DNA of 36,955 nt from a virus (lineage: Duplodnaviria; Heunggongvirae; Uroviricota; Caudoviricetes). Below, piece after piece: positions 14,228-36,955 of the stretch. A program made the position numbers and the translations under genes. Each line of letters begins with the position of its first letter. Positions within the stretch are counted from its first letter, which is position 1. The stretch lies in IMG/VR virus record IMGVR_UViG_2681813166_000002, positions 1-36,955 of that record. One strand, 5' to 3'. The notes beneath the pieces were generated by a model that was not told the DNA's origin, did not search any database, and was given only the letters and a program-made list of their open reading frames with translations.

Positions 14228-15957
14228 GCCGGAAATCTTACCCCAACGTAAATGCTGCAAATCAGTATGCCCGGGATGTCGTGCGCGGAAAGATTGTTGC
14301 CTGCCAGTTTGTGATTCAGGCCTGCCAGCGCCATCTTGATGACCTGATGGCGGAAAAAAATAAGTCGTTTCGTTACCGCTTCGACAAGGACCTGGCTGAA
14401 CGGGCCGCCAAATTTATTCAGCTGTTGCCGCACACCAAGGGTGAGTGGGCATTTAAGAGGATGCCCATCACGCTGGAGCCGTGGCAGCTCTTTGTGATCT
14501 GCTGCGCGTTTGGCTGGGTCAATAAAGGTACCCGGCTGCGCCGCTTCCGTGAGGTGTATACCGAAATCCCACGTAAGAACGGCAAATCGGCAATCTCTGC
14601 CGGTGTCGCCCTGTATTGTTTTGCCTGTGATAACGAGTTCGGCGCGGAAGTGTATTCCGGTGCCACGACGGAGAAACAGGCATGGGAAGTCTTTCGTCCG
14701 GCAAGACTGATGTGTAAACGCACACCCATGCTGATGGAAGCGTTCGGGATTGAGGTTAACGCCTCAAACATGAACCGTCCGGAGGATGGTGCGCGTTTTG
14801 AACCGCTGATCGGTAACCCCGGTGATGGTTCATCACCCCACTGTGCGGTGGTGGATGAATATCACGAGCACGCCACAGATGCGCTTTACACCACGATGCT
14901 TACCGGGATGGGGGCGCGACGTCAGCCACTGATGTGGGCTATCACTACCGCCGGGTACAACATTGAGGGGCCGTGCTACGACAAACGGCGGGAAGTCATC
15001 GAGATGCTCAACGGCTCGGTGCCTAACGATGAACTGTTCGGGATCATCTATACCGTTGATGAAGGTGACGACTGGACCGACCCGCAGGTGCTGGAAAAAG
15101 CCAATCCAAATATTGGCGTGTCGGTTTATCGCGAATTTTTGTTAAGTCAGCAGCAGCGTGCGAAAAATAACGCCCGTCTGGCAAACGTCTTTAAAACAAA
15201 ACACCTCAATATCTGGGTGTCGGCGCGTTCGGCGTATTTCAACCTGGTGAGCTGGCAGAGCTGCGAGGATAAATCACTGACCCTTGAGCAGTTCGAGGGG
15301 CAGCCGTGCATTCTGGCCTTTGACCTGGCGCGTAAACTGGATATGAACAGCATGGCGCGACTTTATACCCGCGAGATTGACGGTAAAACGCATTACTACA
15401 GTGTGGCCCCGCGTTTCTGGGTACCGTATGACACGGTGTACAGCGTCGAGAAAAATGAAGATCGACGGACAGCCGAACGCTTTCAGAAATGGGTGGAAAT
15501 GGGCGTTCTGACCGTTACCGATGGTGCGGAGGTGGATTATCGCTACATCCTCGAGGAGGCCAAAGCGGCGAACAAAATCAGTCCGGTCAGTGAGTCACCC
15601 ATCGACCCCTTCGGGGCGACCGGGTTGTCACATGACCTTGCTGATGAAGACCTGAACCCCATCACTATCATTCAGAACTACACCAACATGTCCGACCCGA
15701 TGAAAGAGCTGGAAGCGGCAATTGAATCGGGGCGCTTTCATCATGATGGCAATCCCATCATGACCTGGTGTATCGGCAACGTGGTCGGCAAAACCATTCC
15801 GGGTAACGATGATGTGGTGAAGCCCGTCAAAGAGCAGGCGGAAAACAAAATTGACGGTGCAGTTGCGCTGATTATGGCGGTTGGCAGAGCCATGCTGTAC
15901 GAGAAAGAAGACACGCTGTCTGACCACATTGAGTCCTATGGGATCCGCTCGCTTTAA
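14224..15957 (+). CDS. Terminase large subunit
   Basis: 577-aa ORF with ATPase-like region ([11 protein letters not shown]) and C-terminal nuclease-type region; standard position. Confidence 0.9.
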
Positions 15958-23695: not shown

Positions 23696-25520
23696 ATTTG
23701 AGCTTAAGGCGTTGATCACCGGTGTCGACAGACTTTCTCCCGCGCTGTCGAAAATGCAAAAGAAAATCCGGGGATTTAAACGCCAGGCGGAAGAAGCATC
23801 ACAGGGTGGGCTGGCGCTTGGTGGCGGACTGGCAGCGGGTCTGACGCTTTCCCTGAAATCTTATGCCGATCAGGAAAACGCCGCCACCGGGCTGAAAGTC
23901 GCCATGATGGATGCGAACGGCGAGGTCGGAAAGAGCTTTCAGGACATCAATAAACTGGCTATTGGCCTGGGTAACCAGCTACCCGGTACAACGGCTGATT
24001 TCCAGAACATGATGCAGATGCTGGTGCGTCAGGGGATCCCGGCAGAAAATATTCTTGGCGGTGTGGGTAAAGCGACAGCTTATCTTGCGGTACAACTGAA
24101 AAAAACACCGGAAGCGGCTGCTGAGTTTGCTGCAAAGATGCAGGATGCTACCGGAACGGCGTCAGAAGACATGATGGGGCTGTTCGACACTATCCAGAAG
24201 GCGTTTTATCTGGGCGTTGACGATACCAACATGTTGTCCTTCTTCACTAAAACCAGTTCTGTTCTGAAGATGGTGAACAAGGACGGTCTTCAGGCTGCAC
24301 AGAGCCTTGCCCCCATCAGCGTCATGATGGATCAGATGGGGATGAACGGGGAGTCGGCAGGTAATGCCCTGCGAAAAGTTATCCAGTCCGGATTAAGCGT
24401 TAAGAAAATCAGGGACGTCAATAAAGTCATGGCCCGCCAGAAACTCGGAGTGCAGCTCGATTTTACTGACGGCAAAGGGAGTTTTGGCGGTCTTGATAAC
24501 ATGTTTAAGCAACTGGCAAAGCTGCGAAAACTGACCGACGTTAAGCGAACAGGTGTACTTAAGGCAATATTTGGTGATGATGCCGAAACCCTTCAGGTGG
24601 TCAATGCTCTGATCGATAAAGGAAAGGATGGTTACGATCAGATCCAGCAGAAGATGAATAAACAGGCCAGCCTGAATAAACGTGTTCAGGCACAGCTTGG
24701 TACGCTGTCCAACCTGTGGGAGGCAATGATGGGGACCGCAACTAACGGTCTTGCAGCTATTGGCGGCGCATTTTCTGGTGACGCTAAAAATATCACGCAA
24801 TGGCTGGGGGAGTTGGGGGAAAAATTCACGAAGTTTGCGGATGAAAATCCCCGGGTTATTCGCGGCGTCGTCGGGCTTGCTGCCGGTCTTGCGATTCTGA
24901 AACTGGGATTGATGGGCGTGGGCAGTGCCATCAGTATTGTCAGCAGGATCATGTCGATGACGCCGATTGGCATGATTGCGACGGCGATTGCTCTGGCTGC
25001 GGGATTAATTATCACTAACTGGGATGTAGTTGGACCTTATTTTAAGAAACTCTGGGAAACCATTGGTCCTTATTTTGAGGCTGGCTGGGAACTCCTTAAG
25101 AAAGTTTTTGCCTGGTCGCCGCTGGGGATGGTGATCAATAACTGGGGACCGGTTGTTAAGTGGTTTCAGGATATGTGGGATAAGCTGAAGCCGATTATTG
25201 AATGGTTTACCGACAGTTCCGGTGACACGGTCGATACCATTAACTCGGCGCAGTGGGGCGCGGGTGCTTATGATGCTTATGGGACGGGAATACCGGCACG
25301 GGGATACACTCCTTATCCGGCGGTGGATCCGGCTCAGGCAAACAACGCCTCCGATGCCACAGGCTCGAATCCCTTCATGATTAATAAAGCTACCGCGCCA
25401 AAAGTTGATGGTGAGATCAAGGTATCATTTATAAATATGCCACCAGGTATGCGGGTTACGGAAACACGCTCCAGTGGCATTGATATAAATCACGATGTTG
25501 GCTATACCCGATTTTGGTAG
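23688..25520 (+). CDS. Tail tape measure protein
   Basis: 610-aa ORF, Ala/Gly-rich helical with hydrophobic central segments. Confidence 0.85.
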   Translation: MAEFELKALITGVDRLSPALSKMQKKIRGFKRQAEEASQGGLALGGGLAAGLTLSLKSYADQENAATGLKVAMMDANGEVGKSFQDINKLAIGLGNQLPGTTADFQNMMQMLVRQGIPAENILGGVGKATAYLAVQLKKTPEAAAEFAAKMQDATGTASEDMMGLFDTIQKAFYLGVDDTNMLSFFTKTSSVLKMVNKDGLQAAQSLAPISVMMDQMGMNGESAGNALRKVIQSGLSVKKIRDVNKVMARQKLGVQLDFTDGKGSFGGLDNMFKQLAKLRKLTDVKRTGVLKAIFGDDAETLQVVNALIDKGKDGYDQIQQKMNKQASLNKRVQAQLGTLSNLWEAMMGTATNGLAAIGGAFSGDAKNITQWLGELGEKFTKFADENPRVIRGVVGLAAGLAILKLGLMGVGSAISIVSRIMSMTPIGMIATAIALAAGLIITNWDVVGPYFKKLWETIGPYFEAGWELLKKVFAWSPLGMVINNWGPVVKWFQDMWDKLKPIIEWFTDSSGDTVDTINSAQWGAGAYDAYGTGIPARGYTPYPAVDPAQANNASDATGSNPFMINKATAPKVDGEIKVSFINMPPGMRVTETRSSGIDINHDVGYTRFW

Positions 25521-33424: not shown

Positions 33425-33515
33425 ATGCTTATTGGCTACGTACGCGTATCAACAAATGACCAGAACACCGCTCTGCAACGTAATTCGTTGAACTGTGCAG
33501 AATGTGAGTTGATTT
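33425..33515 (+). pseudogene. Truncated Gin/Hin/Pin-family serine DNA invertase (first ~30 codons only)
   Basis: MLIGYVRVSTNDQNTALQRNSLNCAECELI matches the invertase N-terminus including the catalytic serine region, then diverges into AT-rich sequence with an early stop. Confidence 0.8.
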
Positions 33516-33699
33516 TGAAGATAAAATCAGTGGCACAAAGTTCAATAAAAATATACCTGACACATTATACGAAGAAGATTTTATGGTTTTTTCTGTTGAT
33601 TTTTTAACATGGCTGCATGGATACAGATATGACGAAGGTAATGTAGAGTAGTAAGAACATAAATAGGCTGACAAAAGTTCAGCCTACAGTCTTTTCATC

Positions 33700-34584
33700 T
33701 TATCTTACAGCTGGTGTTTGAGGTGGCTTCGTTTTCGTTTTTTTCACGCCCTTGTTTTTTACTATTTCCAGTGCCCTTTTCTGAAGGTCTACTCCTGATG
33801 GATAGAGCACGTTGAGAATGTGCTCAGTCAGTCGGTACGCATCAAACAGATCACTTTGAGTTAAACCTGATGCTGCGTGACTCCCTTCATTACCTAACCA
33901 CTTAACAGCAAATAAAAGTCCATCTAACTTTCCAAATGTTTTTTTTCTATGTGCAGCTATGGTAATTCGTTCATGAAGAGACATGAGGCACCGCTCGCGC
34001 TTGGACTTACCCTTCCGCTTAATTAATTTGTATTTTGGTATATTGTATTCAGATAAAAGATTCTCTATTGCCATTCTAACCTTGTTTGCTGCTGAGCTTG
34101 GCGAAAGTAGTGTCAGTGAAAATGCTTCTTGCAAATTCTCATATACTTCAGATGGACATGTTGTGGGGATATCTATGTACTGTAGCGGAGGGATAAATAC
34201 TTTGGGGATGTAATAGCTAAAGTACTCCTGTATCTGTTCATCTCGATCATTTACAGTAATATCCATCTCAACATAACCAGTGCCTGAGCAGACGACAACT
34301 TCCTCGCATTCATGATTTTCGCATACCAGAACCGCAGTAAAAACCTCTTTAATCAGTTCTGTATCGGAGCCGAGAATCTCAATAAGATTATGTGATTCAC
34401 TAGTTACCTTTGCATAAAATTTTTCTTTATTTAATTTCAAACTGCTTCTTCCGCAACTTGGGCACGGGTATGTCACGTAGTCATTTACTTTGAAAGGTTT
34501 ACCAATTGAAAACTTATCCATTTTTCTCTCGTTAATTTCTCTATGAATGGTTGCTACTGAGTTTACCAACACTGTGTTTTGCAT
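33700..34584 (-). CDS. Hypothetical 294-aa protein: N-terminal zinc ribbon plus C-terminal helical domain with an R-x5-H motif
   Basis: AT-rich ORF; CPSCGR...CENHECEE cysteine cluster; C-terminal ERITIAAHRKK and KWLGNEGSHAAS. Confidence 0.7.
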   Translation of the reverse strand: MQNTVLVNSVATIHREINERKMDKFSIGKPFKVNDYVTYPCPSCGRSSLKLNKEKFYAKVTSESHNLIEILGSDTELIKEVFTAVLVCENHECEEVVVCSGTGYVEMDITVNDRDEQIQEYFSYYIPKVFIPPLQYIDIPTTCPSEVYENLQEAFSLTLLSPSSAANKVRMAIENLLSEYNIPKYKLIKRKGKSKRERCLMSLHERITIAAHRKKTFGKLDGLLFAVKWLGNEGSHAASGLTQSDLFDAYRLTEHILNVLYPSGVDLQKRALEIVKNKGVKKTKTKPPQTPAVR

Positions 34585-34807
34585 GCAATTTGCATGGAGT
34601 AGAATAAAAAAATCGGAAGTTGTCCGCTATCTCACAAATTTCCGCAAGCAATAACATCGCTAGCTTTAATACTTTAGCTCTCTCGATTTCTTGTTAATAG
34701 GAGTATGGGATTAATAATCCATACTCCTCGTTTTAAGGCAGCTAATAGACGCCTTTTGATGGGGTTAATAATATCATAAAAGAATTTAAAAATAACTTCA
34801 TTGTCTA

Positions 34808-35248
34808 TTAGTAACTAATGGTTATCGTAAACATAAATGTAGTTAGTTGACAAAAACCTACGACTGATAACATTATTTTTATCCAGAAAAAAAATAAGGC
34901 GGGGTAATTTATACAATTTGGTGGTTCTTTTAAATTATGTGTTTTTTTATCAAGTCCATTTTCCTCAAGATATTTTTCTCTTCTACGACCAAGCATTCCC
35001 CAAATAATAGTGGTTGCAGCATATTGCAGAAAATCCATTATTAAAGACATAACCAAGAACACTAATGACCAATATAGTGTATTGGGAAATAATAGAATTG
35101 TCTCAGACGAAGATCCTACTGAACTATTACTTATACTTCCCTTGAATAACCATATCAATGCAATCCCACCTAGACATGATTGCCTGTTAATATTTGATAG
35201 TGAACCGCTCGCATCATAGTATGCTTGCTGTATTTTATCTAAAAGCAT
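34808..35248 (-). CDS. Hypothetical integral membrane protein (146 aa)
   Basis: Several hydrophobic helices; start overlaps the stop of the upstream small gene. Confidence 0.6.
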   Translation of the reverse strand: MLLDKIQQAYYDASGSLSNINRQSCLGGIALIWLFKGSISNSSVGSSSETILLFPNTLYWSLVFLVMSLIMDFLQYAATTIIWGMLGRRREKYLEENGLDKKTHNLKEPPNCINYPALFFFWIKIMLSVVGFCQLTTFMFTITISY

Positions 35249-35535
35249 TACAGTACCTTCTTAATATTTGCACGTTTAGGCCCTGTACTGGTAGTCATTT
35301 TAGGCACATTTTCGGGGATGAGAATATTTTCGCTTGAAATTATTGCCCAGTTGCCTTTTTTTATTTGTCTGGTATTTAAATATGCTCGCCCATTTTTTAT
35401 AGTAATAAACCTTGAGTTTATAGAAACTCTTCTCGTCCTGTCAGGATTATCTTTTTTGGCTAATGTAATGCTGACTCTGGTAATCTTTGGATTTGATATA
35501 TGCATATGTACACGTAAGCCACGACTTTTTTTCAT
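35248..35535 (-). CDS. Hypothetical small basic protein (95 aa), first gene of a two-gene operon
   Basis: GAGGGG RBS 6 nt upstream of ATG (MKKSRGLRVHMHISNPK...); the track ORF extends further upstream without an RBS. Confidence 0.5.
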   Translation of the reverse strand: MKKSRGLRVHMHISNPKITRVSITLAKKDNPDRTRRVSINSRFITIKNGRAYLNTRQIKKGNWAIISSENILIPENVPKMTTSTGPKRANIKKVL

Positions 35536-36208
35536 TATCCCCTCACTGATACTAGCTTTAACACTGTGATACAATAACTTATATTTATGAATAAAATCAA
35601 TTGATAAATTGTAGCATTTCGGTGGCATGGAAGTTACTGTCACTACAAGCAGGTAACAACACACTCTCCTTGTTTATAACAGTAACGCACTTCAATCATG
35701 TCAAATATATGGCGGTCGAGAAATAAAGTGGCCTATAGCTATTCACTCGGGAACTGCGGCTCCTTTGCGTATCCTTTTTTGTCTCTTCACCTTCTGGTCG
35801 GTGTCTTGCTGAGATTTATAACTTCCTGTTTTTGTTGGTGTTGTCCTTACACCCTCCAATCATGATTGGCTGGCGGTAGTTGAACCCGCAGACACGTCGT
35901 ATGCAAGGACTTGCTGCGGCTGGATGGTGGACTTTCGATAGTGCGAGTATTGAATGATTTCCATCTATTATAGATTTTACCGTATTTCGGCATGAATGAA
36001 ATTGAATATCCTCCCACCGACCCTCCATGACTTTACACCACTGTCTCTGGGGCTGCTATGTGCCAAAAGCTGACATCTTCATTTTCGATGAATTTGTCAG
36101 CTACATATTATGACGCTTTCATATTTTGATGCTTTTCCCTAAATAATACTAACCCAATTCTCATCTATTTCGCTATCAATCTTAATCGTATTTAATAACT
36201 TGCAGTCA

Positions 36209-36955
36209 CTATCTATATAGCCTTTTTGCTAATGGTTCTATGGATGATGAATAGCAAAACTCTCTATTCATATTGTCTATCAATTCAAAAACTTGATCTT
36301 CAACCTCATAGTAATCATTTCTAGGCAATCGAGGATGGATTATTCCAAAATTTCGAAGCAAATTTGTGATGTTATTTTGATGTCTTACGTAAGAGAAAGA
36401 ACCTGATTTGGCTAGTGAACATGCAGTATTTGAGTCACTTATAGCACTGTTTAATTTTACAATCAGATTGCAGTAGTCTTGAGATATGGATGTAGAGCCA
36501 GAACGAGACTTATTAAAAATGATGTTATACCATTTGAATATATCAAATGAAGATGCGGATAGACGATCTCTTTTATTTATTTCGTATGATAAGTACTCTT
36601 GAAATATCTTAAAGTGTGATATATGGTTGCCAAGAGCTGACACGCTGACACTATTAGTATACCCAAGCAACGCAACAACTATTCCACCTATGCTAGCGAC
36701 TAACCCCAACAATATGAAAGTTGCTTGCAATATTAATATTGATTGTGAGTAACCTTTAGTAAAATTTGAAATGCAGGTATTATTGAAACAAAAACTCCGA
36801 TTAAAAAAACCTTCTTGCATTCCAGTTAAAATAAATGAAGTTACAAAAAGCATTATGCCTAGTGTAACAATAGTAATCAAACATAGAAGCAAGATTCTAA
36901 GAGAGTGTGAGTCTATTTTTTTTAGAAGGATATAACTTTTAAAAAAGTTTTTCAT
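36209..36955 (-). CDS. Hypothetical protein with two N-terminal TM helices and a soluble C-terminal domain (248 aa; start at window edge)
   Basis: AT-rich ORF; hydrophobic segments ILLLCLITIVTLGIMLFVTSFIL and ILILQATFILLGLVASIGGIVVALLGY; the ATG is the last three bases of the window, so the true start could lie beyond. Confidence 0.55.
   Translation of the reverse strand: MKNFFKSYILLKKIDSHSLRILLLCLITIVTLGIMLFVTSFILTGMQEGFFNRSFCFNNTCISNFTKGYSQSILILQATFILLGLVASIGGIVVALLGYTNSVSVSALGNHISHFKIFQEYLSYEINKRDRLSASSFDIFKWYNIIFNKSRSGSTSISQDYCNLIVKLNSAISDSNTACSLAKSGSFSYVRHQNNITNLLRNFGIIHPRLPRNDYYEVEDQVFELIDNMNREFCYSSSIEPLAKRLYR

Follow-up and report, generated by a model that had tools for sequence, protein, structure and literature searches.

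Temperate phages have accessory-gene slots, and conserved boundary or linker sequences lie between their modules. We analyzed a gene-free block at the right end of a prophage, within 36,955 nucleotides of viral DNA (IMG/VR record IMGVR_UViG_2681813166_000002; "the window" is this whole stretch), and compared it with the closest described systems. At the distal junction of prophage CP4-57 in Escherichia coli K-12, the 3'-terminal nucleotides of ssrA, the gene for transfer-messenger RNA (tmRNA), are followed by the native ssrA trailer with the palindrome CCAATCATGATTGG, and the same arrangement is present in the block. In the b region of phage lambda, a stretch of 179 bp (24162-24340) is 81% identical to part of the block, has the same orientation to the tail-fibre genes, and is flanked by leftward accessory genes. 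The 3' untranslated region (3'UTR) and terminator of dinI-like genes, for example in dusA prophages, contain the same 95-nt module as the block does. CssrB (RF02799) is an RNA of ~180 nt that a Northern blot revealed in Shigella flexneri 301 (PMC3071730), and the 3'-terminal stem-loop of its model is the same as one of the block's hairpins (P2, below).

We think, with a probability of about 70%, that recombination left the block as a non-coding scar between two accessory-gene slots. It is a mosaic of four parts on the minus strand: an ssrA fossil (the fused ssrA end and its trailer), a hairpin module, a spacer segment like the lambda b region, and a flank that is linked to a retron. The composition of these pieces, their homologues, the exact junctions between them, and the covariation of the module's two stems are all directly observed. 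If this reading is right, the odd block is neither a hidden gene nor a part of the retron, but a scar that records recombination with the host's tmRNA locus.

Among E. coli genomes, EC6563 is the closest, with 99.2% identity to the window over 35400-36400, and its RefSeq annotation has no features at all in the block. According to that annotation, the gene-free gap is 673 bp (35536-36208), which is more than was proposed in a first-pass annotation of the sequence: the left neighbour in RefSeq is a 95-aa coding sequence at 35248-35535, rather than a 138-aa open reading frame (ORF) that starts with GTG and ends at 35664. The first-pass annotation had described the block as higher in GC and without a convincing gene, and both descriptions hold. 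The GC content is 0.42-0.47 over ~35600-36100, as compared to 0.29-0.37 in the flanking cargo genes, because of where the block came from (a host trailer and a phage spacer amid AT-rich cargo genes) and not because of its function. Only ORFs of 32-70 aa overlap the region, and a Pfam search with the longest of these (70 aa) was empty.

The ssrA fossil is at 35743-35889. Within it, 35867-35889 (minus strand) is a degenerate end of the tmRNA gene, with the last 23 nt: the T-loop, the 3' half of the T-stem, the 3' acceptor strand, and CCA (alignments A1 and A3). Next to it, 35743-35866 (minus strand) is the native 3' trailer of ssrA, which is 88-93% identical to the DNA directly downstream of annotated E. 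coli ssrA genes. On the ssrA strand, the native order is ...GCGGGTTCAACTCCCGCCAGCTCCACCA|ATCATGATTGG... As compared to ssrA, the window's copy is missing 5 bp (TGGAG on the + strand), is mismatched at one position in the T-stem, and retains 23 of the final 28 nt. In other copies of the block, the 28-nt ssrA end is perfect, or 39 of 39 nt match if the start of the trailer is counted. The window's copy has also lost the trailer's terminator hairpin, which other copies retain. When we compared the block to 5426 complete E. coli genomes (using megablast), 35743-35889 had matches in 4246 of them, and ssrA is annotated under many of these matches. For example, the match in FDAARGOS_1300 spans the last 28 nt of ssrA and 125 bp downstream.

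We consider the trailer to be host DNA because it follows ssrA in other genera. It follows a tmRNA gene called by ARAGORN in Klebsiella indica, where the palindrome is included, and it follows the tmRNA gene of Photorhabdus cinerea at ~70% identity, where the palindrome is absent. (Our pattern scan of genome contigs had just 16 specified bases and was swamped by chance matches; the only informative loci were those from Klebsiella and Photorhabdus.) Since other genera have the trailer after ssrA, we rejected the idea that it is an arm of an old element that had integrated at ssrA. The ssrA trailer is conserved across Enterobacterales, as illustrated by GCGGCTCCTTTGCGTATCCTTTT (alignment A3, which includes the window and three native ssrA loci).

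The perfect 14-bp palindrome lies at 35856-35869, just where the first-pass annotation had placed it. By itself it is statistically ordinary: the whole window contains six perfect 14-bp palindromes, and ~2.3 would be expected. Its significance is that it belongs natively to the 3' end of ssrA and has been conserved there; the final three bases of the palindrome are complementary to the tmRNA's CCA end. It is present in 17 of 17 copies of the block and in the native ssrA loci of E. coli and Klebsiella. The palindrome is inherited ssrA trailer sequence and has no phage role of its own. That it has been kept in E. coli, in Klebsiella, and in all of the phage-borne copies, including the diverged ones, suggests an unexplained constraint on the trailer of the tmRNA precursor.

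No tRNA had been recognised in the block, and the tRNA and tmRNA finders concur, yet the palindrome abuts a fragment of the tmRNA's T-arm and acceptor stem. ARAGORN did not find any tmRNA or tRNA in the window, Rfam gave no match to tmRNA, and the block had no matches of any kind in scans with Rfam and the tRNA and tmRNA finders, at either gathering or permissive thresholds. A complete tmRNA gene is ruled out, as just 23 of the last 28 nt are present and the finders are silent.

In K-12, the counterpart of the fossil lies between ypjF and ypjA (93% identity over 117 bp), which we take to be the distal junction of CP4-57, a prophage that integrates at ssrA. The two loci differ in several ways. 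The block is inside a prophage whose closest relative integrates at thrW, not at ssrA. The block's identity to ssrA reaches the T-loop (28 nt in intact copies), while that of the CP4-57 junction ends after ~15 nt. The block's other side consists of the phage hairpin module instead of DNA from CP4-57; the window's core has degraded; and there is no adjacent integrase. The suggestion in the first-pass annotation that the block might be an attachment site or the remnant of an integration is essentially right for 35743-35889, where the host's DNA (the trailer and the 3' end of ssrA) meets the phage hairpin module at the T-loop, as at an attachment-site (att) junction, but not if it means a working site. 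In EC6563, we found no second copy of the core (with up to 3 mismatches) and no meaningful direct repeats that would delimit an element.

To the right of the ssrA fossil and the hairpin module is a non-coding segment (35982-36076, minus strand; "type A") that is common to the lambda b region, phage phi458, and the DNA downstream of the DNA-invertase gene pin in other prophages. The homologous stretch of lambda is between ea47 and ea31, and the identity to phi458 is 96%. Homology to these three sources takes over on the right of the ssrA piece. In the other prophages, the homologous DNA starts exactly at the stop codon of pinE, and in one case it is followed by Avs2. Just ahead of the hairpin, lambda still has a handful of bases that can be aligned to the end of pin, but it lacks the ssrA fossil. 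A literature search on terminators in the b region found no function for this stretch of lambda. The remainder of the block (36077-36208, minus strand) is inherited together with the gene for a retron effector of the Ec48 family and is the retron-linked flank.

Between the ssrA fossil and the type A segment is the two-hairpin module (35886-35981), which is ~95 nt and is sharply bounded in an alignment of 91 distinct copies (alignment A2). It includes the hairpin P2 (35886-35919, minus strand; about -13 kcal/mol), which in most homologues resembles a terminator on the minus strand, and the stem P1 (35923-35927 with 35961-35965), which together with the near-invariant loop GGAAATCATTCAATACTCGCACTATCG occupies 35920-35981 on the minus strand. 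The 5' boundary of the module is GTAAAATC, at 35973-35981 on the + strand. In the minus sense, the module reads GTAAAATC..GGCTGG-[AAATCATTCAATACTCGCACTATCG..]-CCAGCC-A-CCGCAGCACGT-[UCUUGCAUACG]-ACGUGCUGCGG-UUUU. We define the family by the invariant loop between P1 and P2. The window's copy aligns to the family over its full length and keeps both stems; in the window's lineage, P1 was maintained by a double change from C-G to A-U.

To quantify the covariation, we specified the structure by hand and then tallied the pairs. Across the 91 copies, 93.4% of the cells in the two helices are paired, while control alignments in which the partner columns were slid had just 25-61% pairing. Changes on both sides of a pair occurred in 33 cells, versus 7.2 in shuffles, and none of 500 shuffles reached 33. 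The covarying stems and invariant loops show that there is selection on a non-coding element. The first-pass annotation had also raised the possibility of a non-coding RNA or a regulatory region. Given the covarying stems, this is plausible for the hairpin module alone, and not for the rest of the block.

The module is likely to be on the minus strand, but this is not settled. G-U pairs outnumber A-C mismatches by 63 to 29, which favours the minus sense, and 53 of the 91 homologues have at least 5 T within the 8 nt after the stem in the minus sense, as compared to 0 in the plus sense. However, the plus sense folds at lower energy. The energy of P2 is -13.1 kcal/mol in the window, and the mean across the 91 copies is -14.5 kcal/mol.

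The module is nearly universal in E. coli: it has matches in 5385 of the 5426 genomes, at 14,661 places, with a median of two per genome. Among the matches listed, RefSeq has no annotated feature under the module. Our pattern scan identified at least 119 loci with the module in viral contigs. In TUM22761, a laboratory strain which has K-12-like genes for the Qin prophage, a copy with a good U-tract lies at the end of Qin, between ynfT and ydfJ' (L259 3501-3596). Another copy is between ykgJ and ecpE (L260 3501-3587). This last copy adjoins a 40-aa fragment of a tail-fibre-assembly gene, which suggests that an old prophage remnant became fixed around ykgJ.

In about 60 of the roughly 130 copies that we examined, the module lies a few bases past the stop codon of an 82-aa dinI-like gene. 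In these loci, a few bases separate the stop codon from GTAAAATC, and a U-tract comes after the hairpin. The arrangement in 731 E. coli genomes runs from pin through the hairpin and the rest of the module to dinI and an integrase, which both read toward the module, and on to dusA. (We considered whether this integrase might mark an attachment site at the hairpin, but it is the integrase's other side that abuts dusA, and we rejected the idea.) The simplest reading of these arrangements is that the module would be a 3'UTR and intrinsic terminator between convergent transcription units. No dinI gene precedes the module in the window. There, the lambda-like segment and the retron lie upstream instead, and ssrA sequence replaces the U-tract.

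Just on the tail-fibre side of the module, there are matches to Rfam's IS009, whose gene type is given as unknown (L050 508-711; L034 2159-2238). IS009 may be a fragment of a gene and not an RNA gene, because SA186 has a 40-aa fragment of a tail-fibre-assembly gene at a comparable position (L260 2955-3074). Matches to IS009 flank both the module and PasB, and we checked if the module could be PasB. Nothing in the module corresponds to the PasB probe, AATCCCGCAGTGATCGCGGAGCT (PMC8550237, table S6), and this identity was rejected. We also rejected AgvB and AsxR by their locus, as both are at the PR' moron site (PMC4104026).

The ssrA piece meets the hairpin at CTGCGG|GTTCAAC. Copies of the module that abut pin read CTGCGGTTTCATTTATC instead, which has ~10 bp of microhomology with the ssrA-type junction. 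More broadly, the left flank of the hairpin is a general breakpoint for mosaicism: it is the stop codon of pin in 14 copies, the ssrA fossil in 17 copies, and other sequences in the rest. The full composite (trailer, ssrA end, hairpin, and the remainder of the module) is present in 168 E. coli genomes. The composite probably had a single origin or a small number of them, and recombination between prophages would then have spread it.

Two other observations concern this junction. First, at the real ssrA locus of FDAARGOS_1300 (L012 36810-46870), there is a degraded prophage beyond the trailer, with an integrase, yfdPQR, an IS3 element, a dinI pseudogene with the module, and a GIY-YIG gene. There, the sequence that flanks the hairpin, CGGTTTCAATCACC, resembles the T-loop region of ssrA, and the composite could have arisen from such an arrangement. 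Second, several of the "other" left flanks (L021, L114, L126, and L033) resemble decayed ssrA 3' ends without the trailer. One of these, TTTCAACTACCGCAGCCAG, has the same mismatch and deletion as the window, which points to repeated recombination at this place.

Homology among strains breaks at both edges of the block (35743 and ~36066), and the genes beyond these edges vary across strains and are mostly for defence. On the one side, cargo 1 (the cassette to the left of the block) and the block up to ~36065 are common to matches H6-H10 and H219-H223. On the other side, 35743-36400, which includes most of the block and part of the retron, is common to four genomes (H2-H5) at 97.4% identity, and genomes with other cargo diverge at ~36065-36076. 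Between pin and the block, various strains have GIY-YIG, restriction-modification, ImmA/HTH/BRO, or the DUF4145 cassette of the window; between the block and the end of the prophage, they have retron Ec48, a 379-aa protein, SMEK, an S1 peptidase, a DMT transporter, or ABC-3C. Avs2 follows one copy of the module that lacks the ssrA part, and ea31 and ea59 hold this place in lambda. As in other accessory slots, there is a conserved non-coding anchor with variable cassettes around it, many of them for defence, and the breakpoints are at its edges. Unlike boundary and linker sequences in general, this anchor is partly derived from the host (the ssrA trailer), and it splits the region from pin to the attachment site into two slots. 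Because the block recurs across E. coli prophages as a landmark that divides two slots whose contents, many of them defence systems, are swapped, it could be used to find cargo systematically.

How might such a scar have formed? An ancestral phage would have acquired the end of ssrA and its trailer from the host's chromosome. This could have happened at the att-type (attR) junction of a prophage that had integrated at ssrA, or else by illegitimate recombination within the T-loop, where CTGCGG(G/T)TTCAA provides microhomology. The composite would then have spread among prophages through recombination. The module may end the transcription of leftward cargo (the retron, in the window) and insulate it from the convergent transcription of the tail-fibre genes and pin. 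In the window's copy, termination and insulation would be weak, with the U-tract being lost. Because the U-tract has been replaced and the ssrA terminator has been deleted, transcripts from the retron may read through into the cargo-1 genes, which are on the same strand. Finally, the conserved block may serve as flanking homology, with the cassettes on either side being exchanged by homologous recombination.

Several results count against the idea of a scar with a terminator, and the module's terminator and insulator roles are putative. In the window, the hairpin is stable, rich in G+C, and covarying, but it is followed by GTTCAACT, with just 3 T in 8 nt, in place of the U-tract, which was replaced by the ssrA fragment (the canonical copy reads CTGCGGTTTTTC and the window's copy CTGCGGGTTCAACT). 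Neither the window nor canonical copies gave a relevant result in a scan for consensus promoters and terminators. This negative is uninformative because the scan excludes loops of over 8 nt, which includes the loop of P2, and because it also missed the ssrA terminator hairpin in L002. RNAalifold did not identify a consensus structure for the 91 sequences of alignment A2, which we attribute to gaps in the hairpin region. As to the origin of the composite, all of the copies whose context we examined are inside thrW or dusA prophages, and none are at a real ssrA locus, so that either capture at an attR-type junction or illegitimate capture may apply. And both the 25-nt loop and the loop of the hairpin are closer to invariant than a terminator or an anchor for recombination would need, which hints at a sequence-specific function beyond the scar.

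That last point leads to the strongest alternative, which is that the module (35886-35981, minus strand) is a functional regulatory RNA, either derived from a 3'UTR or independently transcribed, that binds Hfq or ProQ and uses its loop as a seed, and that the block is kept for the sake of this RNA. The 25-nt loop is invariant among copies with unrelated upstream DNA (dinI type, lambda type, and others), which favours this view, as do the covariation of both stems with an excess of G-U pairs in the minus sense, the terminator-like 3' end, the conserved TAAAAT box at the 5' boundary, and the presence of the module in nearly every E. coli genome. But we see no recognisable -35 element at the standard spacing upstream of the TAAAAT box, and the promoter scan did not flag any. 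The strand is ambiguous, as discussed above; the window's copy does not have the U-tract; and the module does not match any Rfam family or, as explained above, PasB, AgvB, or AsxR. A search for targets complementary to the loop (in the window and in L046) yielded nothing better than shuffled controls, and a full-text search for the loop sequence did not turn up a paper. Overall, we view this as an unlikely explanation for the block.

CssrB might seem to bolster the case, as the locus of this RNA shares the hairpin. However, only the hairpin is shared. In the canonical copy L034, the CssrB model scores 44.1 bits, as compared to its gathering threshold of 76, and this match covers just the hairpin and is on the opposite strand. 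In the window, there was no match to CssrB at E values of up to 10. CssrB is on the + sense, which is what its probe detects, and the body of CssrB corresponds to the variable left flank of the module.

A separate claim concerns the module wherever it occurs: that these ~95 nt are an undescribed functional structured RNA (a 3'UTR-derived small RNA that binds Hfq or ProQ, or else a cis-acting element) that lambdoid and e14-like prophages, and what remains of them, carry in ~99% of E. coli genomes, with the invariant 25-nt loop as its functional site, and that it marks the inner border of an accessory slot. The conservation of the loop makes this conceivable, but we would bet against it. It is nevertheless the module's possible role as an RNA that we find interesting, as the rest of this window's block seems to be explained as a mosaic scar. 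The module has no Rfam family even though lambda and K-12 both carry it, and its function could be tested directly in standard strains.

Another alternative is that the ssrA-like core and the palindrome are a live secondary attachment site, where integrases that target ssrA (such as CP4-57's or others) deliver or remove cargo. The T-loop is a classic position for crossover by integrases that target tRNA-like genes, and the junction falls in the T-loop. Also, other copies keep a perfect ssrA 3' end along with the trailer, and the cargo differs on either side of the block. Yet the breakpoints are at the block's outer edges and not at the core, the window's core has both the deletion and the mismatch, and neither cassette in EC6563 is delimited by a second core or by flanking direct repeats. 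As there is no integrase gene adjacent either, a live site is quite improbable.

It is less probable still that the block encodes a small protein. There are ORFs of 34-70 aa, including one of 70 aa at 35816-36028 (minus strand), and at the homologous place, the record for lambda imm21 has a hypothetical 63-aa coding sequence with a ribosome-binding site (24083-24274). But lambda has ATA where the 70-aa ORF should start, and the frames extend past the conserved segment into flanks that are unrelated (the ssrA fossil here, and in lambda the pin remnant). Most substitutions between copies are non-synonymous, one candidate frame has a stop codon in several copies, and there is neither a Pfam match nor a RefSeq coding sequence in E. 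coli. Retron ncRNAs sit upstream of the gene for the reverse transcriptase (RT), and although the block is a structured non-coding stretch beside genes of a retron of the Ec48 family, it can hardly be this retron's non-coding RNA (msr-msd), as it is downstream of the effector, the RT is upstream of the effector and past the end of the window, and the conserved parts of the block are found without a retron in thousands of genomes and in phage lambda.

Returning to the scar and its surroundings, the window covers the greater part of a lambdoid prophage that has a contractile tail and is similar to e14 or CPS-53, including the terminase, portal, sheath, tape measure, baseplate, YmfQ, and invertible tail-fibre genes, and the block is at its right end. 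In EC6563, the prophage begins with an integrase beside tRNA-Thr (thrW) and ends before LysR'/paoD. To the right of the block, 36209-36955 (minus strand) encodes a two-transmembrane effector of the retron Ec48 family (PADLOC 2TM_IV, E = 1.9e-82; in EC6563, the RefSeq product names identify both the effector and the RT). The start of the effector coincides with the last base of the window, and in EC6563 the RT is just upstream. The msr-msd would be expected further upstream than the RT, past the end of the window.

The best matches to the prophage as a whole, over 12000-36065 (AST216, FDAARGOS_1267, and others; 96.8% identity), stop at 36065 and have a DMT transporter and an aminotransferase in place of the retron. 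EC6563 has the retron, but its match to the window does not begin until 13257. This makes the window a recombinant that lacks an exact counterpart among the 5426 genomes.

To the left of the block, 35536-35742 (minus strand) is upstream or leader DNA that travels with cargo 1: it is co-inherited with that cargo in matches H6-H10 and H219-H223. It stands where other copies of the block keep the native ssrA terminator; A22 and CUVET, for instance, carry AAAAAGCCCGCATAAGCGGGCTTTT there (alignment A1). The cargo-1 cassette itself is in the 33425-35535 stretch, on the minus strand, and encodes a DUF4145 protein (294 aa, 33700-34584), a hydrophobic protein of 146 aa, and the basic protein of 95 aa. 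It has a marginal match in PADLOC to PD-T7-4 (E = 0.0036) and may be uncharacterised defence cargo. To the left of these genes, at 33425-33527 on the + strand, are the first ~34 codons of the DNA invertase pin (79% identity to PinE over 34 aa by tblastn). The equivalent of this remnant is annotated as a recombinase pseudogene in EC6563 and FDAARGOS_1267, and the remainder of pin has been replaced by the cargo-1 cassette. With pin cut to ~34 codons by a cassette on the minus strand, the inversion switch of the tail-fibre genes is presumably locked.

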